64,000 bases of DNA from an uncultured bacterium (GTDB lineage: Bacteria; Zixibacteria; MSB-5A5; JAABVY01; JAHJOQ01), in assembly GCA_965369655.1 (NCBI GenBank), contig CBDUQR010000002.1, positions 33,857 to 97,856 on the forward strand, in the 5' to 3' direction. This document shows positions 43,044 through 63,208 of the stretch, in pieces; the first letter of the stretch is position 1; every line of letters starts with the position of its first letter. The notes beneath the pieces are model-generated. The model saw only the letters and a program-made list of their open reading frames with translations, had not been told where the DNA came from and did not search any database. A program made the translations under genes and the position numbers.

Positions 43044-43556
43044 TTGGGTGATTGCCGGATATCTGTCGATGTCGCCGGTGCGAAAAATATCCCGCAGGCG
43101 AGGGGATTCTATGATCTCATGGAGAATCTCCTCAACTTCCCGATAAAAGCGAGGGGGAAATTCCACTCTTATATCCAGAGCGAGTATCTATCCATAGACA
43201 TTGATAAGAAGGGGTTCCTGCTCAACGTGGAGGTCTCTCTCCCTCGTGATGACTGGACGGCTGACCCGCGCATTGTCGTACCTGTCGGCGCCGAGATGAG
43301 CAAGCTGCGTTTCCTCGATTACCGGCTCGACATATCGGGGGAGTCGTACTTCACAAACGAGAAGAAAGACCTGCTGTATATATGCTTCTCTCAGGACCGG
43401 CATGTCAAGACATTCGAGATCGCAGAGAACATTCTCGCCGATGTCAACCTCGTGAACGAACTTGTTGGCCTGTGGCTGCTCAGTCTCGAGGAAGACTACG
43501 AATTCAAGGCGGAGATGGCGTTCCGAAAAGGTGTGGAAGTCAAGAGCCGGAAGTAG
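43044..43556 (+). CDS. Hypothetical protein
   Basis: The 170-aa ORF lies 14 nt after cpoB on the same strand. A competing antisense ORF at 43188-43601 was judged less likely. Confidence 0.4.
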   Translation: MGDCRISVDVAGAKNIPQARGFYDLMENLLNFPIKARGKFHSYIQSEYLSIDIDKKGFLLNVEVSLPRDDWTADPRIVVPVGAEMSKLRFLDYRLDISGESYFTNEKKDLLYICFSQDRHVKTFEIAENILADVNLVNELVGLWLLSLEEDYEFKAEMAFRKGVEVKSRK

Positions 43557-45330
43557 TATCTTTCTGATTCCCGTACCATTCCCAGAAACTGATCGATTCA
43601 CTGTACAGATGTTTGATAATCTGAATCTGTTGTCTTAGCATATAATCTCGTTCAAAAAGATCAGCATCGATATCTCCAAACGAGAAATCAATAGGTGGCT
43701 TAGGTTGGAATATTTCGTTCGGCTCGATAAGCCTGTAGACTATCCCCTGTGGAGCCGGTCTGAAGTACGCTTTGTCACGGAAGTCGTGTATCATGATGAA
43801 ATATTTCGGTCTGTCAGGTACTGACATAATTGCTGAAATGAGTGACTGAAAGGCATCCTCGATCACTGCCTGATCAAACTCCAGTCCACGTTCGAACAGT
43901 CTCAATTGCGGTATAAGACGTTCCCGCTCCTCTTTGATACTCCTATAAAGAGCAGAATCGATCGCTTCGATATAGTCATAGTACCAACTTCTCCGCAACA
44001 ATTCATAATCGATAGCAGTGATGTCGAGTCTTTCTTTATCGATGTTTTGCCTGTACAGGAGTGGGCTGTAGAAGCTCCAGTTGGTGGTAAGAAAAATACC
44101 GTTAGGTTCTATTGAAGCAAGCAGCATGTCGGTCTGCTTGTCGACAAAATCATAACGGCTTCGATCTGCGAAGGATCGTCCTGTGACAATTAAGTGTGTC
44201 CCCAATAAGAGAAAGATTACAGCGACGACAACAGGGGCTTCAATTTTCGGTAATCTCGGCAGCTTGTGGAATGCCAGGTCAACCAATGCTGCGATGCCGA
44301 CGGCGCAGAACAGCGCGTAGATGAATATCATCGGGAGCAGGTATGTGTCGATCTCAGGGATCGTGTATCCGGCGGCGAAGACAATGTTCAGAGCGAGAAT
44401 CACCAGCAGGCAGGCCGACAGGATTCGGTCTCTCCTGAACAAATGAATCAGTCCGAACAGAGCGGGGATAATCAGCGCGATTGGGAATTCAGTGACTGTC
44501 ATTCGGATGAGATCGAACATGCTCGATATGTGCTCATCGAATGGCTTGTTGAACATCCATGTACGATATTGCCAGCCGGAAGCGTGCCTTATGAAGTTCT
44601 CGAATGTCGATGGGTTACCCCAATTGAGTAGTGGCGATTGAGATGCTCGTATCGGTAGATACAAATACGCGCTGATCGCGATCGGCAGCATGATTGCAGC
44701 AGTCGTTGCCAGTCTGCTAAACTGACGGCGAAGATTGCGGTCGGCGATGACCCACAGCATGATCGCAGCCGCGACGAAAACGGTCGATGAGTGATTGCAG
44801 AACGACAACCCGACAATGTATGCTATCAATGCAAATATCCGGATGTCGGATCGCCCGGGGGTGAAGCGGGCACGAGTTACCAGAAAAGTGATCGCCGACA
44901 GGAAGAGAAGATGAAGAGCGTAGACTTCATTCGTGACCGACAGAATCCATACCTGAGGCGAGTAGAGAAGAAGCATGCCGGATGTTGCTGCCGCGACAAG
45001 AGTCAACGACGATTTTCTGTTTCCCGGACGCAGTGAGCCGAAAAGAATTAGGCATGTGAGAAAAAAGAAGATAGCTGAGCCGATTCCACAAACGACTGAC
45101 AGGAACGATACTGCCTGAATAACCTCACCGGGATGGAGAATGCAGAACAGTCTTCCCAGCAGCGTGTAGAGTGGATATCCCGGCGGATGCGCGATACCGA
45201 GTGTGCTGCAGGCGACGGCAAGTTCGCCTGAATCAACGAATCCTACGTAGTTGGCGGATGTCCTGACAAGCCAGGCGAAATTCACCAACAGCAGTGCGCC
45301 GACTGCAAGCTTTGCGGCTTTAGAGTTCAT
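43540..45330 (-). CDS. DUF2723-type polytopic membrane protein (GT-C-fold glycosyltransferase-like)
   Basis: The N-terminal motif (VDSGELAVACSTLGIAHPPGYPLYTLLG) is typical of DUF2723/TMEM260-like proteins. It has about 11 TM helices and a C-terminal soluble domain. Confidence 0.65.
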   Translation of the reverse strand: MNSKAAKLAVGALLLVNFAWLVRTSANYVGFVDSGELAVACSTLGIAHPPGYPLYTLLGRLFCILHPGEVIQAVSFLSVVCGIGSAIFFFLTCLILFGSLRPGNRKSSLTLVAAATSGMLLLYSPQVWILSVTNEVYALHLLFLSAITFLVTRARFTPGRSDIRIFALIAYIVGLSFCNHSSTVFVAAAIMLWVIADRNLRRQFSRLATTAAIMLPIAISAYLYLPIRASQSPLLNWGNPSTFENFIRHASGWQYRTWMFNKPFDEHISSMFDLIRMTVTEFPIALIIPALFGLIHLFRRDRILSACLLVILALNIVFAAGYTIPEIDTYLLPMIFIYALFCAVGIAALVDLAFHKLPRLPKIEAPVVVAVIFLLLGTHLIVTGRSFADRSRYDFVDKQTDMLLASIEPNGIFLTTNWSFYSPLLYRQNIDKERLDITAIDYELLRRSWYYDYIEAIDSALYRSIKEERERLIPQLRLFERGLEFDQAVIEDAFQSLISAIMSVPDRPKYFIMIHDFRDKAYFRPAPQGIVYRLIEPNEIFQPKPPIDFSFGDIDADLFERDYMLRQQIQIIKHLYSESISFWEWYGNQKDTTSGS

Positions 45331-46992: not shown

Positions 46993-47676
46993 ATGAGTGA
47001 TGGAAAATTATACATAGTCGCGACGCCTATCGGTAATCTCTCTGATGTTACTCAGCGAGCTGCGGACACGCTTCGTTCAGTCGATATCATCGCATGCGAA
47101 GATACAAGGCATTCTGGCAAATTGCTCAAACATCACGGTATCTCTGCGAGACTGATTCAGTACCACGATCACAACAAAGATCATTCCGCGCCCGGCATCG
47201 TCAAGATGCTTCTCGAAGGACACGATGTCGCGCTAATCACCGACTCGGGCACGCCGGGCATCTCTGATCCGGCATTTGTACTCGTGCGACTCGCGCTGGC
47301 CGATGACATAGAAATTATCACCATTCCAGGCGCCTGCGCAGCTATCGCAGCGCTCACCATCTCGGGACTGCCGATGGACAGGTTTGCGTTCGAGGGTTTC
47401 CTGCCTGTGCGAGTTGGTAGACGAAGAACGAGACTCCTGAGTGTCAAGGATGATCCGCGCACGCAAGTGTTCTACGAATCGCCTCATCGGCTTGTCAAGG
47501 TGCTCGCCGCTATGAGGGAAGTATTCGGAAACAGGAATGTGGCGATCGCGCGGGAATTGACCAAGATCCACGAAGAGGTTATCAGGGGGACGTTCGACGA
47601 CATCTTAGACCGGTTCAGCGAGTCAAAACCACGAGGGGAATTCGTCATCATTGTCGAAGGAAACACCGGCAAATAG
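46993..47676 (+). CDS. rsmI: 16S rRNA (cytidine1402-2'-O)-methyltransferase RsmI
   Basis: LYIVATPIGNLSDVTQRAADTLRSVDIIACEDTRHSGKLLKHHGI…is the tetrapyrrole-methylase-fold signature of RsmI. Confidence 0.85.
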   Translation: MSDGKLYIVATPIGNLSDVTQRAADTLRSVDIIACEDTRHSGKLLKHHGISARLIQYHDHNKDHSAPGIVKMLLEGHDVALITDSGTPGISDPAFVLVRLALADDIEIITIPGACAAIAALTISGLPMDRFAFEGFLPVRVGRRRTRLLSVKDDPRTQVFYESPHRLVKVLAAMREVFGNRNVAIARELTKIHEEVIRGTFDDILDRFSESKPRGEFVIIVEGNTGK

Positions 47677-48550
47677 CAGCAGCCGCGGACTCATCCCGGT
47701 AGATTATCTGGTCCTTGGCTACCTGATTCTTACAAGCACACTTTTTATCGTCTCAGATTGTGCTGCTTCCTGTCGAATTGTATGGCTCGGATTCAATGCA
47801 GCAGCGGCAGTGCTTGTTCTGATTCTCAGGAGAATCGACCTGCGAGCATCCGGACGCGGCGTCAGATGGCTGCGAGAATACTATCCCGTCCTGCTGTTCA
47901 CATTCTTCTATGAACAGACCCAGCCCTTAATTGACGCGTTCAGTTCAGGATGGCTCGATGCTCAGGTGGTCGAGTTCGAGATTGAGCTTCTCGGATTGCA
48001 GCCCTCGCTTGTGGTGGAGAGGTACTTCAGCCCGCTCCTGAATGATGTCATAATTGGGTGCTATGTTTCGTACTACCTTTGGCTGCCTGTGGGACTGCTG
48101 TACTTTCTGATCAGGAGTGATGAGAATACCGCTGACCAGGTTCTCACGGCGGCGACCATAGTATTCTTCATTTCATATGCGACCTTCGTTCTCTACCCGG
48201 TCGAGGGGCCGAGATACCATCTTGCAGGTCTGTTCGAAAGAGACATGGTCGGGTACATCTTCGTGCCACTGGTCGGACAGATCATGGATACTGCGGCAGT
48301 ACATGGCGGTGCCATGCCGTCGTCTCATACAGCAACCGCGCTGATCGTGCTTGTGGGACTGTTTCGTCGGTCAAGACGGCTTGGAATTCTGCTTTTGCCT
48401 GTCTTCCTCGGTCTGATGATCGGATGTGTCTGGGGGCGATTTCATTATGTATCCGATGTCGCTGTCGGGATCGCCATCGCGATTCTCGCGGAATGCCTGA
48501 CGAGGCTCATATTTGCCAGAGGATGGTTGGGAGCGCGCCGACTGCTATAA
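47651..48550 (+). CDS. PAP2-superfamily membrane protein (lipid phosphatase or inositol-phosphoryl transferase-like)
   Basis: PAP2 motifs C2 and C3 are present (PSSHTA; GRFHYVSDV) in a protein with 6 TM helices. It overlaps the rsmI end by 26 nt, so the start is uncertain. Confidence 0.7.
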   Translation: MSKETPANSSSRGLIPVDYLVLGYLILTSTLFIVSDCAASCRIVWLGFNAAAAVLVLILRRIDLRASGRGVRWLREYYPVLLFTFFYEQTQPLIDAFSSGWLDAQVVEFEIELLGLQPSLVVERYFSPLLNDVIIGCYVSYYLWLPVGLLYFLIRSDENTADQVLTAATIVFFISYATFVLYPVEGPRYHLAGLFERDMVGYIFVPLVGQIMDTAAVHGGAMPSSHTATALIVLVGLFRRSRRLGILLLPVFLGLMIGCVWGRFHYVSDVAVGIAIAILAECLTRLIFARGWLGARRLL

Positions 48551-48606
48551 AGTTGTTGATCGATCGATATAACATGAGTATCATCCTGCCTGTTTGAAAG
48601 GACCGC

Positions 48607-49422
48607 ATGTATCCTGAGATAGTCAAATTAGGACCGATAGTTATCCGCTCGTATGGATTGATGTTGGCGTTGTCGTTCTTTGCTGGTGTGCTGTTGGTGA
48701 GATATCGAGCAAAGAAGATCGGCGTCAATCCCGAGTTTGTGGTGAATTTATCGTTTATCGTCATTATTGCAGGAGTCATCGGGGCAAGGCTGTTCTACGC
48801 ATTTTATCACTGGTCGGATTTTGCCGGAGATATGCTTGATATCTTCAATCCTTTCGGATCATCTGAAGGTTTTGGAATTGCCGGTCTGAACATGCAGGGT
48901 GGATTGTTGCTCGCATTTCTGTCGGCTGTCGGTTACTGCCTGATCAGGAAGCAATCGATTGCGGTAGTATTCGACCTGTTTGCTCCGGCGGTCGCCCTTG
49001 GGATATTCATCACCCGAATCGGATGCTTCCTCAATGGCTGCTGCTTTGGTACGGAATGCGATTTGCCGTGGGCGGTTCGTTTCCCGGAGGGGAGTATTCC
49101 GAATTCGCACCTTGGCGATGTTTACATACATCCGGCGCAGTTGTATTCGTCGCTTTACGGGCTTTTGTTGTTTTTCATTCTGTCTTTTGTCGAAAAGAAG
49201 AAGACTTTTGTGGGATTGACATTCTCTCTGTTTCTCATAATCGAGGCAGTGTTTAGATACGCGATAGAATACGTTCGCTACTATGAGTATCAGATGAAGG
49301 TTGAGCTTTTCGGTGTGATGTTTACCTACAATCACATTGTCGCGATTCTGATGTTCCTGGCTGGCTGGGGATTGCTTCTATTCTTTCGCGCAAGAGTCGG
49401 ATCGAAGACACCTGCCGTTTAG
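48607..49422 (+). CDS. lgt: Prolipoprotein diacylglyceryl transferase
   Basis: Lgt signature blocks are present (GPIVIRSYGLMLALSF…RLFYAFYHW…) in a protein with 7 TM helices. Confidence 0.85.
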   Translation: MYPEIVKLGPIVIRSYGLMLALSFFAGVLLVRYRAKKIGVNPEFVVNLSFIVIIAGVIGARLFYAFYHWSDFAGDMLDIFNPFGSSEGFGIAGLNMQGGLLLAFLSAVGYCLIRKQSIAVVFDLFAPAVALGIFITRIGCFLNGCCFGTECDLPWAVRFPEGSIPNSHLGDVYIHPAQLYSSLYGLLLFFILSFVEKKKTFVGLTFSLFLIIEAVFRYAIEYVRYYEYQMKVELFGVMFTYNHIVAILMFLAGWGLLLFFRARVGSKTPAV

Positions 49423-49660
49423 ACAGTAGGTCAAGCTCACTTGGAGCTTGACTCTTCACACGTCACGCCCCTCTTCGTCAAACTCAAGACAGAGCAAGTG
49501 GGCATGTTTGTGGGCGGCAGACGTCCTCGTCTGCCCCATCCAGCGTTGACATCGGCAGATGTGGACATCTGCCCCGCACAAGTAGGTCAAGCTCACTTGG
49601 AGCTTGACACTTCACACGTCATGCCCCGAGTGGGCATGACCTACTACTCTGCGACCTAAT
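49423..49660. repeat. Highly structured intergenic region: two ~46-bp direct repeats of a family A element plus several perfect hairpins
   Basis: The direct repeats are 49426-49471 and 49581-49626 (GTAGGTCAAGCTCACTTGGAGCTTGAC(T/A)CTTCACACGTCA(C/T)GCCCC). The second is completed by GAGTGGGCATGACCTAC. Perfect hairpins are GGCAGACGTCCTCGTCTGCC and GGCAGATGTGGACATCTGCC. Confidence 0.5.
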
Positions 49661-50002
49661 CTAATAACCCGAGATGTACCGCCATTCGACTTTCTCTCCG
49701 CCATGCAGCATATACTTGTCGGATGCTATTGTGGCGGTAGTGTCATTCACGAAGTAGAGCCAGTATGCTGATCTCGTGTTGGCTGTGCTATCGATGCTTT
49801 TGACGAACACGCCTGAGGGAGATGAATCATATTCAACTTCGTGATCTGATCTGAGAAGATCGAAGACTGAGATACCGGATGAGTCGGGTAGAGCAATTGT
49901 ATGGATAGATTCCTTGCCAGATTCTGAAGAACAGTTAACCAGCAAGAGAGTTGTCAAGATCAGGAACACGGCGAGAACGAACTGTCGGGTTTGTTTCAAC
50001 AC
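49661..50002 (-). CDS. DUF4430-like secreted lipoprotein
   Basis: It has a signal/lipobox (LLVNCSS). The pattern VFDLL…VEY…GVFVKSID…YWLYFVND…GEKVEWRY matches DUF4430. Confidence 0.5.
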   Translation of the reverse strand: MLKQTRQFVLAVFLILTTLLLVNCSSESGKESIHTIALPDSSGISVFDLLRSDHEVEYDSSPSGVFVKSIDSTANTRSAYWLYFVNDTTATIASDKYMLHGGEKVEWRYISGY

Positions 50003-50298
50003 AGAAGCAGGTTACCTGTTTCACGTCCTGAGAACAAGTTTGAAAGTTGAGGTCAAATCTCGGAGTCCGCGAAGCGAACGGAGAGACTTGACAATCCTTT
50101 TTCCTTTTCGCGCTTCGCGCAAGATGTCGAAACCACCCTTCGCAGGCTCAGGACAGGTAAAGGTTTCGACCTACTCAACTGTCAAGACGTTAAATAGTTA
50201 TGAGAACTGACATGGGTTGTTCGGGACGGCGAAACAGCTTGACGTTATGTTTTGAGGCTCGTATATTTCTCAACTTAATGGAAGTGGTGTTAGCTAGT

Positions 50299-50901
50299 AT
50301 GAATTCTGATTTAAGAGCAGCATATGAATTGAAATCGCAGTATTTCGGACGATTCTGTCTGAAACTCGGGCTGACGCCCAATATGCTTACGGCTCTCAGC
50401 CTTGCTCTCAGTGTTGTTGCAGGCATTGTCCTCTGGAAAGATTACCTGATATGGGGCGCTGTATTTATCCTGCTCACCTCCTTCGCCGACATGCTCGATG
50501 GCGCTACCGCGCGAGCCGGCAAAATGGGGACCGTGTACGGCGGCATACTGGATCATGTCTCCGATCGATACGCCGAGTTTTTTATTATAGCCGGGATACT
50601 TCTTTCACAGCGTGTTCATGCAGGTTGGGCGTTGTTCGCTCTTTTTGGAATGATAATAGCATCGTACACGAGAGCGGCAGCGGAATCGATCGGCAAGATC
50701 GAGAACTGCGAAGTAGGGGCTGTCGGAAGGCTCGAAAAATTCACTATGATAATCGTCGGGCTTATCATGGAAGAGTTGTTCCCAGGATACTTTATCCTTG
50801 CCGGCGCTCTGGTTATTGTCGGAGCCGTTTCATACGTGACATCGATTCAGAGGCTCAGATTCACCAAGAAGGCGTTGCGTGAAAAGGGAGATGGTCGATG
50901 A
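50299..50901 (+). CDS. CDP-alcohol phosphatidyltransferase (probable phosphatidylinositol-phosphate synthase)
   Basis: The CDP-OH_P_transf motif is present (DMLDGATARAGKMGTVYGGILDHVSDRYAEF…), equivalent to D..DG..AR..8..G..LD…D. It is followed, with a 4-nt overlap, by a kinase and MIPS. Confidence 0.75.
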   Translation: MNSDLRAAYELKSQYFGRFCLKLGLTPNMLTALSLALSVVAGIVLWKDYLIWGAVFILLTSFADMLDGATARAGKMGTVYGGILDHVSDRYAEFFIIAGILLSQRVHAGWALFALFGMIIASYTRAAAESIGKIENCEVGAVGRLEKFTMIIVGLIMEELFPGYFILAGALVIVGAVSYVTSIQRLRFTKKALREKGDGR

Positions 50902-51815
50902 TTACCGCTGTCGGAAATCCGGTCTACGACACAATCGAAACTCCATTTATTAGGACCGATGGCAGGGTGCTCTCGGGATGCTCGACGAATTTCTGCCTTG
51001 CGCTCGCAAAACTCGGAGTCGGTTCGACGCTGGTGGGCAATATCGGTGGAGAATTCAAAGATAAGATCGTATCCGATCTCGATGGTTTCGATATCGTACG
51101 CACACTGTATGACTCTGCAGAGAGCGGAGGCTTTGGCCTGCGATACTTTGGGGATCATGGCGAGCGCGAACTGAAGCTTCTTGGTGATGCGGGTTCGATC
51201 GACAGTTTCCCGGAGGAATGTGTCGGCAGCGATTTCGTGGTATTCGGACCGATTCTCGGCGAGGTGGACCTTGCGTATATCAAGAACGTGAAGGCCGTGT
51301 CATCGGCGCAGATCGTGCTGGACCCGCAGGGGATTTTGAGGAATCACCGGAACGGTATTATATTTCACGAGAAGAAGGACGAGACCGAGGAATTGATCGG
51401 GCTTTGCGACATCGTGAAGCCGAACGAACTCGAATGCGAGGTTCTGACCGGAATCGATCCACGTGTCGATGCGAGAAGACCGGCTGAAATAATCAAATCG
51501 TGGGGGCCGAAAATTGTCGTGATAACGCTCGCGGAACTCGGTTCGGTCGTATATGACGGGGCGGATTTCATCCCGATACCGGCGTACGAGACCATCGCGA
51601 AGGACTCGACCGGCGCCGGTGATACATATATGGCAGGTTTTATATACGGATATATCAAGGGCTGGGATCTGCGCAGGTGCGGCTGCATGGGAGCGGCTGT
51701 TGCCAGCGTGATGATCGAACATACCGGTCCCGATTTTCCACTTGTTCTGGACGAGACTCTGGAGAGACAGCAGAAGCTCCTGAGACTCAACACTGAAATT
51801 GAATCTTTGAATTAG
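50898..51815 (+). CDS. PfkB-family carbohydrate/polyol kinase
   Basis: It has the ribokinase-fold N-terminus ([10 protein letters not shown]) and C-terminal anion-hole/ATP motifs ([16 protein letters not shown]). Confidence 0.75.
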
Positions 51816-51829
51816 GGAAGGGAGATTCG

Positions 51830-52993
51830 ATGGGCAAAGTACGGGTTGCTATAATCGGCGTCGGAAACTGTGCCTCATCATTCGTGCAGGGAGTGCACTA
51901 CTATCGAAACGCGTCGAAGGACGACTTTATCCCGGGCTTGATGCACGTCAATCTTGGCGGGTATCATATCTCCGACATCGAGTTCTCGGCAGCGATCGAT
52001 ATAGACAAGAACAAAGTCGGCAAGGATATCTCCGAAGCGATTTTCACTGCGCCGAACAACACTTTCAAATTCACCTCTGTACCCAAAACGGGTATAACGG
52101 TGCAGCGCGGAATGACGCACGACGGTCTCGGTAAGTATCTATCCGAGATCATCGAGAAGGCTCCCGGAGACACGGTCGACATTGTGAAGCTTCTCAAAGA
52201 CACACGCACCGACGTTGTGGTCAACTACCTGCCTGTAGGATCTGAGGAGGCGACCAAGTGGTATGTAGAGCAGATACTCGACGCCGGGTGTGGGTTTGTG
52301 AATTGTATCCCGGTGTTCATCGCCCGAGAGCCATACTGGCAGGAGAGATTCAAGAAGAGAAAACTCCCCGTCATCGGCGATGATATCAAGTCGCAGGTCG
52401 GCGCTACCATCGTGCATCGCGTCCTGACAAGACTTTTCCGTGAACGTGGAGTCAAACTCGAACGGACGAGCCAGTTGAACATTGGCGGAAACACAGATTT
52501 CCTGAACATGCTCGAACGCTCGCGCCTCGAATCGAAAAAGATATCCAAGACGAATGCCGTGTTATCGCAGCTCGACTATGACATCGGGAAAGACAATTGC
52601 CATATCGGTCCGTCAGACTATGTCCCGTGGCTGCTCGATCGGAAGTGGGCGTATATTCGCATGGAAGGCCGCACGTTTGGTGATGTCCCACTGAATATTG
52701 AGTTGAAGCTCGAGGTATGGGATTCACCTAACTCGGCCGGCGTCGTCATCGATGCCGTCAGATGCTGCAAGCTTGCGCTTGACAACGGTCTTTCCGGCGC
52801 GATGGAGGCTCCGTCGTCATATTTCAAGAAGTCCCCGCCGATTCAGTTCTACGATGACGAGGCACGCAACATGACCGAGGAGTTTATCCAGAAGTACAGC
52901 GGAAAGACTAAGAAATCGGTTCCGAAGAAGCGAACTCCAAAAACCCGGAAGACGACCCGGGAAAAAACATCGGCTCGTGCAAAGAAGAAATAG
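51830..52993 (+). CDS. ino1: myo-Inositol-1-phosphate synthase (MIPS, archaeal/bacterial type)
   Basis: It has an NAD-binding N-terminus ([22 protein letters not shown]) and a conserved catalytic core (…[14 protein letters not shown]…). A Lys-rich C-terminal tail is unusual. Confidence 0.85.
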
Positions 52994-53038
52994 GAATCAG
53001 GAAAGGCAGCTTGACCGCTGCCTTTCGTTTGAGGGATT

Positions 53039-53689
53039 GTGCGGAAAGGCGCTCTGATAACTCTTGAGGGGATCGACTATTCGGGTAAGTCGACCCAGGC
53101 GGATATTCTCGTCAAACGGCTTCGCGATCATGGCGTGGATGCCATACTAATTCGAGAACCGGGAGGCACTGATCTATCCGAGAGAATTCGCAATATCCTG
53201 CTCAGTCGCGGCGAGATAGAAATCAATCATCGGGCGGAACTTTTCCTGTTTCTGGCTGCCCGCGCGCAGCTTGTCGATTCTGAACTGCGACCATTGCTTG
53301 ACTCAGGTGAAGTCATAATCTGCGACAGGTTTTTCGATTCCACGATCGCATATCAAGGCTATGCCAGAGGTGTCCCGGTCGATCTCGTCCGGACGATGAA
53401 CTCTTTCGCGACAAAGGACCTCGACCCGGACCTTACGTTGCTCTACGATCTTCCTGTCGATGCCGCTCGGGAAAGAGGTCGTAATTCCAACAATGCGCCT
53501 GATCGACTCGAACGGGAAGAGCGGGAGTTTCACCAGAAAGTCAGAGACGGGTACCTTGCGCTTGCCGCAGAGCATTCTGACAGGATCAAAGTTATTGACG
53601 CTGCCGTTGATGTTGACAGCATCTCTGCCAAGACATGGGAACTAACGCGACATTTGCTGGAGCGACAGGGCATTGCACTCCGGGGATAA
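53039..53689 (+). CDS. tmk: Thymidylate kinase
   Basis: GTG start. It has a P-loop (LEGIDYSGKSTQ), DRY-like motifs (ICDRFFDSTIAYQG) and a lid region. Confidence 0.85.
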   Translation: MRKGALITLEGIDYSGKSTQADILVKRLRDHGVDAILIREPGGTDLSERIRNILLSRGEIEINHRAELFLFLAARAQLVDSELRPLLDSGEVIICDRFFDSTIAYQGYARGVPVDLVRTMNSFATKDLDPDLTLLYDLPVDAARERGRNSNNAPDRLEREEREFHQKVRDGYLALAAEHSDRIKVIDAAVDVDSISAKTWELTRHLLERQGIALRG

Positions 53690-55322: not shown

Positions 55323-55364
55323 CCGACGCGACTCACTCGATTGAGGATCGGCTATGGATTGATT

Positions 55365-56012
55365 ATGGGATTCTCGCTGTTTATCGATTTCGACGGTACG
55401 ATTGCGGTTCAGGATGTCGGGAACCGACTGTTCACCGCATTCAGCGGCGGCAGGAACTATGATATTGTCGAGAGGTGGAAACGCCGCGAAGTAACCTCGG
55501 TGGTCTGCCTGACCAAGGAGGCGGAACTGATTTCGGCGAGCCGGTCGGAACTTGTCGACTTCGTTTCCCAATTTGAGATTGACGAGGGGTTCGGAGGACT
55601 CTGCGACCTGTGCAGGGAGAACGATATTCCCGTCATGGTAATAAGCGACGGTCTCGATCTGTACATACACGCCATACTGGACAGGCACGGATTCGGCGAC
55701 ATACCGGTGATGTCGAATCGAGCGGTCTTCGAGAATGGACGGCTCAGGATCGAATTTCCACAATTGGATCACTCCTGCGGATTCTGCGGAAACTGCAAGG
55801 GTTCGGCAATCAGGCGGCTGACTCGCGACGTTGACAAATCGATTTTCATCGGCGATGGCTACTCTGATCTCTGTGCGATCGATGTCTCCGATTATTTGTT
55901 TGCTAAGGCGGATTTGGCGAACTATCTTGCGCAATCAGGCAGGGAGTTCATACCGTATGAAAACCTTTGTGATGTCACAGAGCGAATCAGAAGAAAGATT
56001 CTTGCCGATTAG
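55365..56012 (+). CDS. HAD-superfamily hydrolase, subfamily IB (MtnX/PSP-like)
   Basis: It has motif I (FIDFDGTI), motif II (…VISDG) and motif IV (IFIGDGYSDLCA). The start is ambiguous (TTG 55341 or ATG 55365). Confidence 0.65.
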   Translation: MGFSLFIDFDGTIAVQDVGNRLFTAFSGGRNYDIVERWKRREVTSVVCLTKEAELISASRSELVDFVSQFEIDEGFGGLCDLCRENDIPVMVISDGLDLYIHAILDRHGFGDIPVMSNRAVFENGRLRIEFPQLDHSCGFCGNCKGSAIRRLTRDVDKSIFIGDGYSDLCAIDVSDYLFAKADLANYLAQSGREFIPYENLCDVTERIRRKILAD

Positions 56013-56045
56013 AAGTGTTTCCGCCGAAAGAGAGGATACCCGGAA

Positions 56046-58553
56046 ATGAAAGCGATAATAATGGCGGGGGGATTCGGTACTCGTTTGAGGCCGCTGACAC
56101 TCGGGCTGCCAAAGCCGATGGTCCCGATAGCAAACCGTCCGATGATGGAACATGTTGTTGCCCTGCTTCGCAAGCACGGGTTCGATGAGATACGGTCGTT
56201 GCTTTATTTTCAGCCGGAGGCGATATCGGGATATTTCGGCGACGGCTCCGAATTCGGCGTCAGCATGGATTATCTTCTCTCGAAGGATGATTACGGGACG
56301 GCTGGCAGCGTACGTAGCGCGTCAGACTTTATCGGGTCAGATCGAATTCTCGTTATCTCGGGAGATGTGCTGACCGATTTCGATCTGACTGAAGCTGTCA
56401 AGTTCCATCAGGATCGCAAGTCGATGGCAACGATGCTCCTTACTCACATGGAGAATCCGAGGCAGTATGGCGTGGTAATCACTGACAAAAGCGGCCGGAT
56501 CACTCGCTTCCTCGAAAAGCCAACCTGGGGAGAGGTATTCTCCGACAAGATCAATACCGGCATTTATATTCTCGAACCTGAAGTCGTCAATATGATTCCG
56601 CATCAGAAATTCTACGATTTCTCGAAGGATCTCTTTCCCCGCCTGCTCAAAGACGACTCTCCGATGTATGGATACACGGCTGACGGATACTGGCGTGATG
56701 TTGGCAACATTCAGGAATACATGCGCGCCCACATGGATATTCTCGATGGCATCGTCAAGCTCGACCTGTCACTGAATCAGTTGGCGCACAAGGGAGCTAC
56801 TCTCTGGGTGGGCAAGAACCAGGAGGTCGATGACTCCGTCGATTTCAATGGTGTGGTAATCCTTGGCGATGGAGTCACCGTTGGTCCCAATGCGTCACTG
56901 AGTAATTGCGTGATCGGCGAGAAGACCGCTATTGGCGAGTCGGTGACTATCTCCGAGTCGGTCGTTTGGAATGGTGCGAGGATTGCTCAGGGCGCCAGTG
57001 TGACGAAGGCGATGGTTCTGTCGAATGCAACGATACGGGGCGATGCGATTCTGGAAGAGAACTCGATCGTCTCAGAGAACGCCCGCATCGGCAAGGGCGC
57101 TCGCGTGAAAGCCGGATGCAAGGTTTGGCCCGGTAAGGAAGTCGAAGATGGCGCTACACTATCGACGAGCCTGATCTGGGGGGAGAAGTGGAACAGGGAA
57201 CTGTTCACGGACGCCAAAGTATCGGGGCTGGCCAATATCGAGATCACGCCCGAGTTCGCTGCCAAGCTCGGAGCCGCTTACGGATCATCGATTCCGACCG
57301 GACAAAGCATTGTCATATCGAGGGATGCCGGGAACGCGAGCCGAATGGTAGCCCGTTCGATAATCACCGGCATACTTTCCGCAGGCGTAAACACAGAAGA
57401 TATTCGGACTCTTCCGATTCCGCTCGTCAGATATGCGCTCAAGACCGGACGTCACGCTGGCGGTATACATGTGCGGCATTCGCCTCAGGCCAAAGAGGTA
57501 ATAGATATAATATTTGTCGATGGGGACGGCCTCGATTTGCCGACTTCGCGAGCCAAATCGCTCGAAAGGTTGTTCTTCTCCGAAGATTTCCCGCGAGCTA
57601 AGCTGGATGACATAGGCCAGATCGAATACCCGATTCGGATACTCGAAGCATACAGGCAGGACTTTCTCAAAGCTATCGATGTCGATCTGGTCAGGAAAAG
57701 GCGATTCAAGGTGGTCGTCGATTATGATCACGGCGGCGCTGTGGAAGTGTTTCCGGTCATATTCGCCGCTCTGAACTGCGAGGTTATTTCGCTGAACGCG
57801 TTTATTGATCCATCGAAGATCGGCAGGGCTCCGGAGCGGACCGAAAGCTCGCTTCAGACACTCTCTTCGATTGTCAGATCATTGAACGCAGATGTCGGGT
57901 TCCTGATCGACAACAGCTCGGAGAAACTCCGGGTCGTGGACAGGGAGGGTAACAGGATTTCCGACATGCTCCTGCTGCTGCTTGTAACATCGCTGTTCCT
58001 GCGGACTCACAGAACCGAGACCATCGCCGTACCGGTTACGGCATCGATGGGTGTCGAGGCGATCGCTTCGGAGTATGGCGTCAAGGTGGTCAGGGTACGC
58101 AACGATCACCTCGCGATGATGCACGCGCTGATTAATCTCGATCCCGGATTTGTTGGCGGGACGCGAGGCGGGTTCATCTATCCCGGATTCCAGAGAGGCA
58201 CCGACGCTATGTTCTCTGCTGTCAAGATTCTCGAGTTGATGGCTATGAGCGGCGCCACGCTCGCTGAGATTCGCTCGGAGTACGAGGGTTATTTCATGGA
58301 TGAGATTGAAGTGTACTGCGACTGGGCCGCTAAGGGGAGAGTGATGCGCCGCCTGATGGAGCACTCAGCCGACAGGAAGCGGGATCTCGTCGATGGAGTC
58401 CGCATCAACTTCGATGATCACTGGGTGCTTGTGACGCCGGATCGCAATAAGGCGTCGTTCTGGGTGATCGCCGAATCGAGGGACGAGGATTTGACCGCCA
58501 GGACGCTCTCGGAGTACAGTTCATACATCTCAGAGTGGCAATCTGAGGCTTAG
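56046..58553 (+). CDS. Bifunctional sugar-1-phosphate nucleotidyltransferase / phosphohexomutase (835 aa)
   Basis: It has an N-terminal NTP_transferase (IIMAGGFGTRLRPLT…KPM), a left-handed beta-helix hexapeptide region and a C-terminal phosphogluco/mannomutase-like alpha/beta/alpha domains I-III. Confidence 0.75.
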   Translation: MKAIIMAGGFGTRLRPLTLGLPKPMVPIANRPMMEHVVALLRKHGFDEIRSLLYFQPEAISGYFGDGSEFGVSMDYLLSKDDYGTAGSVRSASDFIGSDRILVISGDVLTDFDLTEAVKFHQDRKSMATMLLTHMENPRQYGVVITDKSGRITRFLEKPTWGEVFSDKINTGIYILEPEVVNMIPHQKFYDFSKDLFPRLLKDDSPMYGYTADGYWRDVGNIQEYMRAHMDILDGIVKLDLSLNQLAHKGATLWVGKNQEVDDSVDFNGVVILGDGVTVGPNASLSNCVIGEKTAIGESVTISESVVWNGARIAQGASVTKAMVLSNATIRGDAILEENSIVSENARIGKGARVKAGCKVWPGKEVEDGATLSTSLIWGEKWNRELFTDAKVSGLANIEITPEFAAKLGAAYGSSIPTGQSIVISRDAGNASRMVARSIITGILSAGVNTEDIRTLPIPLVRYALKTGRHAGGIHVRHSPQAKEVIDIIFVDGDGLDLPTSRAKSLERLFFSEDFPRAKLDDIGQIEYPIRILEAYRQDFLKAIDVDLVRKRRFKVVVDYDHGGAVEVFPVIFAALNCEVISLNAFIDPSKIGRAPERTESSLQTLSSIVRSLNADVGFLIDNSSEKLRVVDREGNRISDMLLLLLVTSLFLRTHRTETIAVPVTASMGVEAIASEYGVKVVRVRNDHLAMMHALINLDPGFVGGTRGGFIYPGFQRGTDAMFSAVKILELMAMSGATLAEIRSEYEGYFMDEIEVYCDWAAKGRVMRRLMEHSADRKRDLVDGVRINFDDHWVLVTPDRNKASFWVIAESRDEDLTARTLSEYSSYISEWQSEA

Positions 58554-58610: not shown

Positions 58611-60281
58611 TTGTATTTCCGGCATGTATATACTTCGACCCAATATGTCATATCTGTGGCTGTTTGCAAGGGAGATCGAATAAAGTTGTTTAAGTATCTG
58701 AGCATTGCGGCTCTCGTGGCCCTGCTTGCAGTTGAATCGTCCTTCTGTAATCCCGGATTTGATTCCGGGACGCCATCAGACAGCCTGAAGCCGGTTCTTG
58801 CCAGGGACCGACTGGAGGCCTCGGTTCTCGACAAAGTTGTTGATCCCGACGAATACTATGTTGGTCCCGGCGACATGTTCGCAATCGTCTTCGGCGGCAA
58901 ACTGGTGAATCGCTATACGCTCGAAGTGACGCCGGAAGGCGTCCTGCTTATACCGGAGTTCGGCCCTGTCGATGTCGCCGGTGTTTCGCTCTCGACAGCC
59001 AAAGAGAGAATCCTGCGAGCGCTTCGCAGCAGGTACAGAGATGTGGATATCTCGATTTTCCTCGTGCAGTTGCGCAGGGTCAAGGTCACGGTCTCCGGTG
59101 AAGTGCTGTTTCCGGGTGTATATATCCTGTCTGCCAGCGACAGAGTCAGCGAAGCGATCAGGATGGCCGGAGGAGCGGGGGAACACTCGTCTGAGAGAAA
59201 CATCATTCTCTTTCGTGGCGACCGGCAGCTCATGGTCGATCTGCAGAAGTATTTCAGAGTTGATGTGAAAGACGCCAATCCGTATGTGCGCGAGGGGGAT
59301 ATCGTTCTTGTGCCGATATCCGAAAGTGTGATCAACAGGATCGGCATCTACGGCGCGGTCCGTTCGCCGGGTGATCACGAATTCGCGTCCGGTGATAATC
59401 TGCTCGACCTGATAATGCTGGCGTACGGACTCACGACGGACGCCGATTCGTTATCCTGCGAGATAGTACGATTCGAGTCGGACAGGCTTACGACGAGGAC
59501 GATGATCGTGTCACTGCCCGCTGGCGATGAATGGCTTGATAGCGTTAGACATGTTCAATTGCTTCCCGATGACAGGATTTACTTTCGGTCCATCCCTGAG
59601 TTTCACAAGAAAGCTCAGGTCGTTATCTATGGAGAAGTCGTCTATCCGGGCGCGTATCCGATAATTGAGGATGTCACCAAACTCAGTGAAGTGATCGAGA
59701 TGGCAGGCGGTCTTACGGAAAACGCCTCGCTCTCTGAGGCAAGGATGGAGAGAGCAGGTTATGAATCGATCGAAGAGGGGGAGTTTGAGCGCCAGTTGAA
59801 ACTCTCGGCGGAGGAACTCAACGACATAGAAAGAGAATACCTGAGGGCTCAGTCGATCGGCAACCCGGGTCGTGTCTCGGTCGATTTCAAGAGGCTGCTT
59901 GTCGACAAAGAAGGGCGACACGACATCGCGCTGAAGAATCGAGACATGATTATCATACCCCGGCTGAGTCGTACGGTTCGAGTGATAGGCAAAATAACGC
60001 GCCCCGGCCTTGTGGTTCACATATCCGGCATGAATGCCAAATACTACATAGAGCAGGCTGGCGGGTTCGGCTGGCGGGCGAATAAGGGCAAGATAAGAAT
60101 AATCAAGGCAGCATCAGGTGCGATTGTGAAGCCGTCAGGCAAGGTTCCGATCGAGGTCGGCGACGCCATAGTCGTTCCGGAGAAGAGTGAACGCAATTGG
60201 TGGAATACGGCTAAGGATGTCGGTATCTTTCTTGCAAACCTGGCCACTGTCTACATTGTGATCGATCAGGTAATAGAGTAA
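58611..60281 (+). CDS. Polysaccharide export protein (Wza/SLBB-domain family)
   Basis: A Poly_export motif is present (YYVGPGDMFAIVFGG…YTLEVTPEGVLLIPEFGPVDVAGVSLSTAKERI), followed by repeated SLBB-like segments. The start may be TTG 58686, with a GGGAGA RBS and the signal peptide FKYLSIAALVALLAV. Confidence 0.7.
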   Translation: MYFRHVYTSTQYVISVAVCKGDRIKLFKYLSIAALVALLAVESSFCNPGFDSGTPSDSLKPVLARDRLEASVLDKVVDPDEYYVGPGDMFAIVFGGKLVNRYTLEVTPEGVLLIPEFGPVDVAGVSLSTAKERILRALRSRYRDVDISIFLVQLRRVKVTVSGEVLFPGVYILSASDRVSEAIRMAGGAGEHSSERNIILFRGDRQLMVDLQKYFRVDVKDANPYVREGDIVLVPISESVINRIGIYGAVRSPGDHEFASGDNLLDLIMLAYGLTTDADSLSCEIVRFESDRLTTRTMIVSLPAGDEWLDSVRHVQLLPDDRIYFRSIPEFHKKAQVVIYGEVVYPGAYPIIEDVTKLSEVIEMAGGLTENASLSEARMERAGYESIEEGEFERQLKLSAEELNDIEREYLRAQSIGNPGRVSVDFKRLLVDKEGRHDIALKNRDMIIIPRLSRTVRVIGKITRPGLVVHISGMNAKYYIEQAGGFGWRANKGKIRIIKAASGAIVKPSGKVPIEVGDAIVVPEKSERNWWNTAKDVGIFLANLATVYIVIDQVIE

Positions 60282-60322
60282 GAAAACGCAGCTTTTGAAG
60301 GCTCTGAGGCATTGAGGTTAAT

Positions 60323-61333
60323 ATGATAAACATCGGTATGGTCGGGGTGGGAGCCTGGGGAAGGCATCTCCTGAGAAACTTCGCAAACCTGCCCGGCTGT
60401 CGCGTGAAAACTGTCTGTGATCTGAGCGAAAAAGTAAGATCGACTGTCGAAGCCACGTATCCCGGCGTGCGAGCGGTTGAGGATTTCGGGGAGATCACGT
60501 CTGATTCCGAGATCAACGCGGTCGTGATCGCTACGACGCCTGAGACGCACTATAAGCTCGCTGCTGCGGCTCTCGGGTCCGGCAAGGATGTATATGTCGA
60601 GAAACCGCTCGTTCTGAAGATCGCGGACGGGGAGGACCTGATCAAGCTGGCGAAGAACAACCAGAGAATTCTGATGGTCGGTCATATCATGGTGTATCAT
60701 CCTGCCATCCTTCACTTAAAGAAGATTATCGACTCGGGCGAACTCGGAGAGATATACTACGTTTATGCCTCCCGGCTGAATCTCGGAAAGGTACGGGAGA
60801 TCGAGAATGCTCTCTGGAGTTTTGCTCCGCATGACATATCGATAGCGCTGTTCCTTCTCGGGCAGGAGCCTGTCAGTGTTACATCAGTCGGGCAGTCGTA
60901 TCTGCAGCGGTCGAAAGGTATTCAGGATGTGTCATTTATGACTATGCTTTTTGCAGACGGCAAAATGGCGAATGTCCATGTGTCGTGGCTTGACCCCAAT
61001 AAAGTTCGCAAGCTGACTGTGGTTGGATCAAAGAAGATGGCGGTTCTCGACGATGCGAGCGCGTCGGAGAAGCTCAGGATATATGACAAGGGCGTAGAAG
61101 TAGCGACTGATTTTCAGACCTACGGCGAGTTCCTGTCACTTCGGACAGGCGACATTGTGATCCCGAAAATCGACTCGTCGGAACCTTTGCGGAGCGAGTG
61201 TTTACATTTTATTAAGTGCGTTGAGGATAGAACCAAACCGAGGTCCGATGGCGTGGAGGGACTCAAGGTGCTGAAGATTCTCGCGGCTGCTCAGAAGTCC
61301 ATGGAGAACGGTGGCGTTCCAGCCAGGATATAA
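60323..61333 (+). CDS. Gfo/Idh/MocA-family NAD-dependent sugar dehydrogenase (WbpB-like)
   Basis: It has a Rossmann N-terminus (INIGMVGVGAWGRHLLRNF) and the family consensus EKPL…DGEDL. Confidence 0.8.
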   Translation: MINIGMVGVGAWGRHLLRNFANLPGCRVKTVCDLSEKVRSTVEATYPGVRAVEDFGEITSDSEINAVVIATTPETHYKLAAAALGSGKDVYVEKPLVLKIADGEDLIKLAKNNQRILMVGHIMVYHPAILHLKKIIDSGELGEIYYVYASRLNLGKVREIENALWSFAPHDISIALFLLGQEPVSVTSVGQSYLQRSKGIQDVSFMTMLFADGKMANVHVSWLDPNKVRKLTVVGSKKMAVLDDASASEKLRIYDKGVEVATDFQTYGEFLSLRTGDIVIPKIDSSEPLRSECLHFIKCVEDRTKPRSDGVEGLKVLKILAAAQKSMENGGVPARI

Positions 61334-61342
61334 GAGGAATTT

Positions 61343-62089
61343 ATGGTTAAATATGTATCTCCAACAGCTAAGATCGGTGAGATGACTATCATTGGACGTT
61401 TCTGCGTGATCGATGATGACGTTACGATTGGTGAGAACTGCATCCTGGGAAACAATGTCGTGGTCTATCCGGGCGCGACTATCGGAAACAATGTGAGGAT
61501 AGACGACGGTACTGTGATCGGAAAGCAGCCGATGCGGGCTGCGAACTCTGCGGTCACTAAAGACCAGGAACTTGAGCCTGCAAGAATCGGTGATAACTGC
61601 ATCATCGGGACTAATGTCGTAATCTATGCCGGTTCGATCATAGGCGAGAAGGTCCTCGTGGCGGACCTCTCGACAATACGCGAAAATGTAACGATTGGCG
61701 ATTTCACGATCGTCGGAAGATGTGTCGCGATTGAGAATTTCTGCAAGATCGGCTCCTACTGTAAACTGGAGACCAATGTATATATCACGGCGTTCTCGGA
61801 GCTCGAAGACAGAGTTTTCGTGGCGCCCTGTGTGGCGACATCGAACGACAATTTTGTCGGGCGCACAAAGGAACGATTCAAATACTTCAAAGGTGTAACA
61901 ATCAGGAAAGGCGGCAGAATCGGTCTGAACGCGACGATTCTACCCGGCAAGGTGATCGGCGAGGATACGCTCGTCGCGGCTGGAGCACTGGTGACTGCCG
62001 ACACGCCCGCACGGAAGATCGTTGCCGGCGTACCTGCGAAAGTCTTCCGGGATGTGCCGGAGGAACAGCTCCTCGAAAATCAGGAATAG
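61343..62089 (+). CDS. Hexapeptide-repeat sugar N-acetyltransferase (WbpD-like)
   Basis: It has continuous left-handed beta-helix hexapeptides (IGENCILGNNVVVYPGATIGNNVRIDDGTVIG…). Confidence 0.75.
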   Translation: MVKYVSPTAKIGEMTIIGRFCVIDDDVTIGENCILGNNVVVYPGATIGNNVRIDDGTVIGKQPMRAANSAVTKDQELEPARIGDNCIIGTNVVIYAGSIIGEKVLVADLSTIRENVTIGDFTIVGRCVAIENFCKIGSYCKLETNVYITAFSELEDRVFVAPCVATSNDNFVGRTKERFKYFKGVTIRKGGRIGLNATILPGKVIGEDTLVAAGALVTADTPARKIVAGVPAKVFRDVPEEQLLENQE

Positions 62090-62101
62090 AAAGGACCCGG
62101 A

Positions 62102-63208
62102 ATGCAAGTACCGCTCCTGGACTTGAACAGGCAGTATAAGACTATCAAGAAAGAAATCGATGATGCCGTGATGACGGTGCTGGAACACTGTCGTTTCATC
62201 AACGGTCCCGAAGTGAAGCAATTCGAAGAAGAAGTTGCCGCATTCTGTGGCGTGAAGTATGGAATCGGAGTGAACTCAGGGACGGATGCTCTTCTCATTT
62301 CGCTGAGAGCCTGCGGAGTAGGTAAGGGCGACGAAGTCATAACGAGTACATTCTCGTTTTTCGCAACCGCCGGCGTCATCTCTCGTCTTGGGGCGAAGCC
62401 TGTCTTCATCGACATCGATCCGACATATTACAATATCGACATCGCAGCGATAGAGGATGCGATAACATCCCGGACGAAGGTAGTTATACCGGTCCACCTG
62501 TTTGGGCAGTGCGTCGATATGGATGCGATTCTCGAAATCTGCAAGCGAAAACATCTGATGGTCGTGGAAGATGCAGCACAGGCGCTGTCGGCCACGTACA
62601 AAGACCGGAAGGCCGGGACTATCGGAGATTTCGGCTGTTTCTCTTTCTTCCCATCGAAGAACCTCGGCGCCGCAGGCGATGCCGGGATGATTGTCTCGGA
62701 TCGCGAGAGCGAGGTGGAGTTCTCTCGCACGCTTCGCGTGCATGGAGCAAAGCCGAAATACTATCATTCGCATATTGGCTATAACAGCAGGCTGGACACT
62801 ATTCAGGCCGCGATACTCTCGGTGAAGCTCAGGCACCTGCCGGAATGGTCTGATGCGAGACGTGCAAAAGCAGCTGTCTACGATCAAGCTTTCGCCGACG
62901 TCGAGCAGGTCACGACGCCGTGCGTCATGGACGGCAATCGTCACATCTATCACCAGTATACGATTGCAGTACCGAACCGCGATGAACTGCGTGACCACTT
63001 GCGGGAAAAGAGTATCGGGTGTGAGACATATTATCCTGTCCCCCTGCATGCCCAGGAATGCTATGCAGAACTCGGATACCGGCCCGGTGCGCTGCCGGTT
63101 TCGGAGCAGAAGGCGAATGAAGTGATCTCGCTGCCGGTTTTCCCGGAGCTGACCGAGGATGAGCAGCAGTATGTGATCGAAATAATCAAGGCGTTTTACA
63201 GTCGGTAA
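62102..63208 (+). CDS. DegT/DnrJ/EryC1/StrS-family PLP-dependent sugar aminotransferase (WbpE-like)
   Basis: The N-terminus is MQVPLLDLNRQYKTIKKEIDDAV. The PLP-Lys context is FSFFPSKNLGAAGDAGMI. Confidence 0.85.
   Translation: MQVPLLDLNRQYKTIKKEIDDAVMTVLEHCRFINGPEVKQFEEEVAAFCGVKYGIGVNSGTDALLISLRACGVGKGDEVITSTFSFFATAGVISRLGAKPVFIDIDPTYYNIDIAAIEDAITSRTKVVIPVHLFGQCVDMDAILEICKRKHLMVVEDAAQALSATYKDRKAGTIGDFGCFSFFPSKNLGAAGDAGMIVSDRESEVEFSRTLRVHGAKPKYYHSHIGYNSRLDTIQAAILSVKLRHLPEWSDARRAKAAVYDQAFADVEQVTTPCVMDGNRHIYHQYTIAVPNRDELRDHLREKSIGCETYYPVPLHAQECYAELGYRPGALPVSEQKANEVISLPVFPELTEDEQQYVIEIIKAFYSR

Follow-up and report, generated by a model that had tools for sequence, protein, structure and literature searches.

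Gene organization of the inositol operon

We analyzed a stretch of 64,000 nucleotides (the window; positions 33,857 to 97,856 of contig CBDUQR010000002.1, assembly GCA_965369655.1), which originates from a diderm member of the Zixibacteria candidate phylum and carries adjoining genes for a CDP-alcohol phosphatidyltransferase, a PfkB-family kinase and a myo-inositol-1-phosphate synthase (MIPS). An initial annotation had combined these genes with those for a PAP2 membrane protein, Lgt and a DUF4430 protein into a single inositol-phospholipid locus and had taken the transferase for a phosphatidylinositol phosphate (PIP) synthase. All six open reading frames (ORFs) were recovered at the coordinates and with the families assigned to them. 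The transferase, kinase and MIPS genes (50299-52993) constitute an operon of their own, which is framed by a promoter-like site and a trailing hairpin and shows the following features:

50239-50267, plus strand: promoter-like site TTGACG-17 nt-TATATT, recognized by consensus match (10 of 12 positions), 31 nt 5' of the transferase ATG
50299-50901, plus strand: CDP-alcohol phosphatidyltransferase of the PIP-synthase type (CDP-OH_P_transf, Pfam PF01066), 200 aa
50898-51815, plus strand: PfkB-family kinase, predicted ATP-dependent myo-inositol 3-kinase, 305 aa
51830-52993, plus strand: MIPS (myo-inositol-1-phosphate / inositol-3-phosphate synthase) of the actinobacterial type (PF01658), 387 aa
52889-52990, plus strand: Lys/Arg-rich C-terminal extension of MIPS, residues 354-387
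53001-53026, plus strand: 10-bp hairpin GAAAGGCAGC-TTGACC-GCTGCCTTTC, 8 nt past the MIPS stop, a possible operon end read from the sequence

The transferase and kinase genes overlap by 4 nt in the sequence ATGA at 50898-50901, which combines the stop codon of the former with the start codon of the latter, and the kinase stop (51813-51815) is separated from the MIPS ATG at 51830 by a gap of 14 nt; both distances are exactly those initially reported. A Shine-Dalgarno-like GGGAG precedes the starts of both the kinase and the MIPS genes, and together with the overlap and the short spacer these sites indicate co-expression. The transferase ORF offers an alternative upstream ATG at 50200, but homologues align only from 50299 on, and the promoter-like site supports the latter start because it is located within the longer ORF. 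We therefore regard 50299 as the most likely start. Because its T tract is weak (GTTTG), the hairpin is missing from the list produced by the terminator scan; the tmk gene starts past it at 53039. The closest species-level counterpart of the window is a locus of a Zixiibacteriota metagenome-assembled genome (MAG), designated L002, in which the gene order from rsmI to an S41 peptidase gene is identical and the proteins are 75-96% identical. The remaining scanned ORFs of the window represent housekeeping genes (PdxS/PdxT, LigA, Tol-Pal, OmpA).

Predicted substrates of the encoded enzymes

The kinase is not covered by any curated family. The source databases label its relatives as PfkB-family sugar kinase, ribokinase or fructokinase, and in NCBIfam many sugar kinase models matched it only weakly and below their thresholds, with IolC on top (72 bits versus a cut-off of 300). 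Whole-fold searches with the AlphaFold2 (AF2) model (pLDDT 92) resulted in margins too small to tell inositol kinases apart from the rest of the ribokinase family, and the nucleoside kinases 2c49 and 3kd6 were among the best matches. Because a PDB search with the single sequence of the N-terminal half gave only spurious RecA matches, we examined the acceptor domain by comparing a profile of kinase residues 1-165 with all PDB sequences. The first rank was taken by the myo-inositol 3-kinase (MI3K) of Thermococcus kodakarensis (E = 4e-8). The N78L/S89L mutant of Thermotoga maritima TM0415, which had been engineered into a 3-kinase, reached E = 1e-6 and 3KD6 1.7e-6, compared to 3e-4 for wild-type TM0415 and 4e-4 or worse for ribokinases. 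In bit scores, the profile likewise placed the TM0415 mutant (93 bits) above the wild type (85 bits).

The inositol contacts of MI3K are D12, G26, Q136, R140 and D219, and where it carries the hydrophobic residues L77, L87 and V112, the 1-kinase TM0415 has N78, S89 and L116 (PMC5931981). In the alignments, G26, L77, L87, V112, Q136, R140 and D219 of MI3K correspond to G27, L81, L92, I119, Q144, R148 and D242 of the kinase, and these equivalents of contact and 3-OH-specificity residues are invariant throughout the kinase family, including its members from Chloroflexus, Anaerolineae and archaea. Conservation within the family is high, and its invariant segments are GNPVxD, GRxLSGCSTN, GGF-L-Y, R-L-LG, PIL-E, DPQGxxR, KPNExE and TGAGDT. 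Because the donor motif reads S237-T-G-A240-G-D242 rather than RxGRGD, and the bulky residues F221 and M266 occluding the ATP cleft of TM0415 are replaced by Ala and Ile, the phosphate donor is likely ATP rather than pyrophosphate (PPi). We thus predict that the kinase is a myo-inositol 3-kinase of the ATP type, and its initially suggested function in the salvage of free inositol gains support at the residue level from the alignment to the Thermococcus enzyme.

It appears unlikely that the kinase acts on another acceptor, e.g., a different cyclitol (for instance, scyllo-inositol), a nucleoside, a sugar or an intermediate of catabolism, in which case a different head group would be transferred, or the kinase would be unrelated to the transferase. 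Such an acceptor would be compatible with the weak scatter of NCBIfam matches over sugar kinases, the database names and the nucleoside kinases among the best fold matches, and even the true acceptor of TM0415 may differ from inositol. However, 3kd6 lacks the DPQGxxR segment in its alignment to the kinase, every published inositol contact of MI3K is matched by an invariant residue of the family, and another acceptor would leave the near-universal adjacency to a transferase of the inositol-phosphate type and the frequent adjacency to MIPS (see below) hard to explain.

The transferase contains the complete metal motif D-x2-DG-x2-AR...G-x3-D-x3-D that had been recognized in the initial annotation, represented by D64, D67, G68, A71, R72, G81, D85 and D89 (numbering of the 200-aa protein), all of which are invariant in 30 family members. 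The highest NCBIfam score was obtained with the model for archaetidylinositol phosphate (AIP) synthase (122 bits; NF040950, cut-off 180), ahead of PIP synthase (96.6 bits; NF045883, cut-off 170) and the BT_1523 type (78.7 bits; NF052561, cut-off 350). In contrast, the PgsA and ClsA models scored only about 25 bits, and by these scores the transferase does not group with phosphatidylglycerophosphate or cardiolipin synthases, which had been named as the grouping that would weaken the lipid interpretation. All 30 kinase-linked transferases rank the models in the same order, AIP synthase before PIP synthase, BT_1523 type, DIPPS and PgsA. Because no score reaches an equivalog cut-off, we assign the transferase to a distinct clade of inositol-phosphate-using enzymes.

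The best sequence match of the transferase in the PDB is PgsA1 of Mycobacterium tuberculosis (6H53), whose residues S132, R155 and R195, plus K135 and R152, bind the phosphate of D-myo-inositol-3-phosphate (PMC6506517). S132, K135, E139, R152, R155 and R195 of PgsA1 align to S122, R125, E129, R144, K147 and R185 of the transferase, which are all invariant across the family, and R137 of PgsA1 is represented by Ala. As judged from this alignment, the transferase keeps the inositol-phosphate site of the mycobacterial enzyme.

The third gene product matched PF01658 with 127 bits (cut-off 27) and TIGR03450 (mycothiol-type INO1) with 536.7 bits over the full model, which is below the cut-off of 638. 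Ino1 of M. tuberculosis (1GR0) aligned with residues 3-353 at E = 5.6e-144; archaeal and Bacteroides MIPS enzymes matched at E values of about 1e-7. By sequence, the MIPS of the window is of the actinobacterial type. The Lys-rich C-terminal extension mentioned in the initial annotation proved to be real: it continues for 34 aa past the end of M. tuberculosis Ino1, which has no such tail, and its composition is conserved in relatives. Basic tails of 26-58 aa with 10-25 Lys or Arg residues occur in all 35 of 35 MIPS proteins of related loci, and while their sequences drift, often being AAKKPA-like, their composition is kept. A plausible role of the tail would be to bind MIPS electrostatically to the anionic membrane, close to the synthase.

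Linkage of kinase and transferase genes and their surroundings

An exact-sequence lookup of the window kinase gave no record, and its relatives served as the basis for analyzing gene linkage. The sample consisted of 80 species-representative loci encoding kinases with 44-82% identity, in which homologues of every window gene were located by tblastn. The transferase gene is present in 76 of these loci and at most 150 bp away from the kinase gene in 70 of them, and three of the four loci without it are contig ends with less than 500 bp of upstream flank. The MIPS gene directly adjoins the pair in only nine loci, which belong to close relatives, and is located a few kb off in another 26; 16 loci, mainly from Chloroflexi plus some of the Zixibacteria type, contain no MIPS gene despite at least 6 kb of sequence on each side. 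The archaeal contigs were too short to judge its presence.

The kinase-transferase pair was found in Zixibacteria, Aminicenantaceae, Chloroflexi, four archaeal MAGs and MAGs labelled Ignavibacteria or Eubacteriales. The carriers among the Chloroflexi are Chloroflexus, Kouleothrix, Roseiflexaceae and Anaerolineae, in which the order is swapped to kinase and then transferase, and the two genes overlap in the archaeal MAGs. Apart from the pair, the neighbourhoods are unrelated between the groups. In evolutionary terms, kinase and transferase form the fixed core, with MIPS as a neighbour that is often present but not required. The tighter linkage of the synthase with the kinase than with MIPS suggests either that the uptake into the pathway of free inositol of environmental or turnover origin is the ancestral or more general supply or that the MIPS gene of those genomes is simply located elsewhere.

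The gap between the kinase and MIPS genes amounts to about 0.8-6 kb in many Zixibacteria loci, and a gene for a TetR-family protein sits between them in many. In locus L065, this gene (8941-9597, minus strand) is inserted between kinase and MIPS and may code for a local regulator of the inositol genes. We considered the intervening gene as a candidate for a missing phosphatase and rejected it, since it represents this opposite-strand regulator in L065.

Upstream of the operon, the window contains the remaining three genes of the initially proposed locus:

47651-48550, plus strand: PAP2_3/PAP2 membrane protein with a fold like that of inositol phosphorylceramide (IPC) synthases, outside the conserved operon and a tentative downstream user of phosphatidylinositol (PI)
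48607-49422, plus strand: Lgt, bystander
49661-50002, minus strand: DUF4430 protein, bystander

The proposal of one six-gene inositol-lipid locus was not borne out, as the region is a juxtaposition of an rsmI-PAP2-lgt group on the plus strand, the DUF4430 gene on the opposite strand and the inositol operon. The PAP2 gene is also positioned directly 5' of lgt, or overlapping with it, in three distant Zixibacteria, usually after rsmI (L082, 6001-7760; L083, 6001-7744; L084, 6001-7753; compared to 47651-49422 in the window), and the PAP2-lgt pair of the complete chromosome CP070796.1 is located about 650 kb away from the kinase operon. The PAP2 gene shares its inheritance with lgt and not with the operon, which leaves the IPC-synthase-like fold of its product as its one link to inositol. 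The DUF4430 gene codes for a small protein and varies in position and orientation among relatives; it has no relation to the inositol genes, and both it and lgt are bystanders. The N-terminus of the DUF4430 protein is lipobox-like (LLVNC).

The PAP2 protein matched PF14378 with 63 bits and the model for PI-dihydroceramide synthase (NF052609) with 20.7 bits at a cut-off of 480, and PDB sequence searches with the protein and its profile retrieved no lipid enzyme at a significant E-value. In a Foldseek search of the PDB with its AF2 model (pLDDT 92), the only matches with E values up to 0.001 were the IPC synthases 9vj4 (8e-6) and Aur1 (9ivc; 9e-5), each over nearly the full length, whereas PgpB-type phosphatases stayed at E > 0.2. 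Invariant residues are S224, H226, H265 and D269, and they form an SxH / HYxxDV pattern, which is typical of head-group transferases of the SMS/Aur1 family. The initial annotation had left open whether the protein is a PIP phosphatase or an inositol-phosphoryl transferase: the modelled fold favours the latter, and the missing PgpB match disfavours the former. PF14378 membership and the invariant residues likewise suggest that the protein transfers a head group instead of dephosphorylating PIP, and it might possibly consume PI.

It remains improbable that all six genes form one inositol-lipid locus with the PAP2 protein acting as PIP phosphatase, even though the PAP2 superfamily includes the PgpB-type lipid phosphate phosphatases and the order rsmI-PAP2-lgt-DUF4430-PIP synthase gene is kept in the closest relatives (L002-L007). 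The separate location of PAP2-lgt in more distant Zixibacteria, the moving or flipping DUF4430 gene, the similarity of the modelled PAP2 fold to IPC synthases instead of PgpB and the head-group transferase pattern all contradict it.

Some further observations concern the neighbouring genes. The pairing of PAP2_3 and lgt in Zixibacteria places a putative head-group transferase beside a lipoprotein diacylglyceryl transferase without an obvious explanation. In the Anaerolineae loci L062 (9774-10256), L069 (9556-10383), L070, L071 and L073, lgt is located directly 3' of the kinase-transferase pair (the L069 gene is a genuine lgt, with 222 bits for Pfam LGT), and lgt is therefore found near a PIP synthase gene in two distant phyla. 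Downstream of MIPS, tmk and the S41 peptidase gene, positions 55341-58553 of the window code for a HAD-IB (MtnX/PHOSPHO-like) phosphatase and an 835-aa fusion protein with mannose-1-P guanylyltransferase-like and phosphomannomutase-like parts, and this order is conserved across Zixibacteria. We rejected these two as genes of a Bacteroides vulgatus-type pathway, since they do not follow the pair outside the Zixibacteria-type synteny. According to the inspected translations, polysaccharide genes follow at 58611-63208, coding for a Wza/SLBB-like exporter, a Gfo/Idh/MocA oxidoreductase, a hexapeptide acyltransferase and a DegT-type aminotransferase. On the other side, a bacterial homologue of TMEM260-like protein O-mannosyltransferases is encoded on the minus strand at 43540-45330 (PF11028, 114 bits), and this gene is conserved 5' of ssb in close relatives.

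Proposed pathway and relation to known systems

We propose, with a probability of roughly 65%, that the operon at 50299-52993 makes PIP from inositol-3-phosphate supplied by two converging routes. In the de novo route, MIPS would cyclise glucose-6-phosphate to 1D-myo-inositol-3-phosphate, and in a salvage or recycling route, the PfkB kinase would use ATP to phosphorylate free myo-inositol at the 3-OH. The two routes would converge on a single isomer, the one that PIP synthase uses. The transferase in the membrane would then convert CDP-diacylglycerol and inositol-3-phosphate to PIP, and a further phosphatase would take PIP to PI. Gene anatomy, family assignments, conserved linkage and the conservation of substrate-site residues, on which the proposal is built, were observed directly.

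Several observations weigh against this pathway, in which we infer the substrates, the regiochemistry, the use of ATP and the lipid product. The kinase is only 18-26% identical to known inositol kinases, and its D11, which is likewise invariant, pairs with D12 of MI3K by position only, without an aligned segment. The kinase family also keeps an invariant lysine, K174 (window 51417-51419), at the position of K171 in TM0415, which is described as binding PPi and as missing from ATP- or ADP-dependent members (PMC5931981). The transferase scores below all NCBIfam equivalog cut-offs, as does the MIPS with its model, and carries Lys (K147) in place of R155 of PgsA1; its best-scoring model is archaeal, and the lipid donor may be either CDP-diacylglycerol or an ether analogue. 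Finally, no PIP phosphatase was found, and tblastn with PgsA and PgpA of a Zixibacteria chromosome gave no match in the window. In locus L082, from a Zixibacteria chromosome, a second CDP-alcohol transferase gene is located beside pgpA (1777-2816), presumably as an ordinary PgsA-PgpA pair for phosphatidylglycerol synthesis. PgpA belongs to the family of the Bacteroides PIP phosphatase, and the protein encoded there is a candidate for the missing step from PIP to PI.

In a wider and more tentative reading, to which we give somewhat less than even odds, the kinase-transferase pair would represent a widespread, undescribed two-gene cassette, shared by Zixibacteria, Aminicenantes, Chloroflexi and some archaea, which converts free inositol via inositol-3-phosphate to PIP and thereby provides the inositol kinase step that has been missing from prokaryotic PI synthesis. 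Zixibacteria would have added de novo synthesis by a MIPS that may be held at the anionic membrane by its basic tail, while the separate PAP2_3 protein paired with Lgt may pass the inositol-phosphate head group on to another acceptor. Chloroflexus itself contains PI. For a Chloroflexota isolate, PI has been reported as a major polar lipid (PMC12453558).

There is very little probability that the operon serves to produce a soluble solute (di-myo-inositol phosphate or glycerophosphoinositol) or operates with a CDP-inositol donor, as in hyperthermophiles, Rhodothermus or the proposed Bacteroides vulgatus-type cluster. MIPS operons do serve such a purpose elsewhere, the transferase weakly matches DIPPS (45 bits, covering the transferase part only), and genes for an NTP-transferase (56046) and a HAD phosphatase (55341) are present a few genes downstream. 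However, the DIPPS score is far under the cut-off of 580 (NF041135) and under those of the AIP and PIP synthase models. The transferase has no cytidylyltransferase domain, and no cytidylyltransferase gene adjoins it in the window or any of the 80 loci. Hence, neither the IPCT/DIPPS nor the CDP-inositol route is the simplest interpretation, and the di-myo-inositol phosphate context considered in the initial annotation is absent. Moreover, the downstream NTP-transferase is the mannose-1-P guanylyltransferase/phosphomutase fusion next to the polysaccharide genes, and neither of the two downstream genes accompanies the pair in Chloroflexi or archaea. Just as improbable is an archaeal-type or ether-linked CDP-alcohol donor leading to an archaetidylinositol-like lipid in this FCB-group bacterium: the archaeal AIP-synthase model tops the scores of all 30 transferase family members and archaeal MAGs hold the same gene pair, but all model scores are below the equivalog cut-offs, the scanned ORFs of the window include no archaeal lipid genes, and the ranking of the models reflects phylogeny instead of lipid specificity.

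PIP synthase together with MIPS has been described in Actinobacteria and Bacteroides (PMC9246714, PMC6506517), whereas no candidate for an inositol kinase was identifiable in mycobacteria or Tannerella (PMC4587543). The initial annotation had considered a PfkB kinase to be outside the described pathways. This applies to its pairing with a PIP synthase, which is new, and not to the kinase class, because a PfkB myo-inositol 3-kinase is already known from Thermococcus (PMC5931981). Our literature search, which was of incomplete coverage, retrieved no paper tying a PfkB inositol kinase to a bacterial PIP synthase. Three features are undescribed in the searchable literature: the conserved operonic pairing of the kinase with a lipid synthase in different phyla, the separate clade of the transferase and the tail of MIPS. 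The entry of free inositol into bacterial PIP-based PI synthesis is an acknowledged gap, for which the paired kinase offers a concrete candidate step, and the gene pair may serve as a genomic marker of inositol-lipid capacity in uncultured Zixibacteria, Aminicenantes and Anaerolineae as well as in cultivable Chloroflexi.

Compared to the known PI pathway of mycobacteria and Bacteroides thetaiotaomicron, which leads from MIPS via PgsA1 or BT_1523 to a PIP phosphatase, the window encodes a similar MIPS of the Ino1 type and would likewise proceed through PIP instead of using free inositol directly. The transferases of both belong to the six-helix class I CDP-alcohol phosphotransferases and agree in the metal motif and in the site for the phosphate of inositol phosphate. 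The window differs from these systems in that its transferase belongs to a separate clade nearer to the archaeal AIP models and that the operon contains a predicted inositol kinase gene; unlike in the Bacteroides pathway, neither a PgpA-like PIP phosphatase (BT_1525) nor a BT_1524 homologue is encoded in the window. The PAP2_3 protein (PF14378) shares the full-length fold and the His/His/Asp pattern with IPC synthases (yeast Aur1, 9IVC; 9VJ4; BT_1522 of Bacteroides), but is only 14-15% identical to them, and its gene adjoins lgt rather than inositol or sphingolipid genes.

Among the inositol kinases, TM0415 of T. maritima (1VK4/5YSP) is a PPi-dependent myo-inositol 1-kinase encoded in a catabolic inositol operon, whereas the window kinase is encoded in a putative lipid operon, lacks the RxGRGD motif for PPi and contains Leu at both positions equivalent to N78 and S89, whose mutation turns TM0415 into a 3-kinase (7E4L). 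With MI3K of T. kodakarensis (TK2285; 3W4S/4XF6/4XF7), the kinase shares its small size, its ribokinase/PfkB fold, a GxGD motif of the ATP type, whose second residue is small, and the identical or conservatively exchanged residues at G26, L77, L87, V112, Q136, R140 and D219. It is distinguished from TK2285 by a sequence identity of only about 18%, by its N-terminal signature GNPVxD...LSGCSTN and by belonging to a family that is bacterial as well as archaeal and operonic with a lipid synthase.

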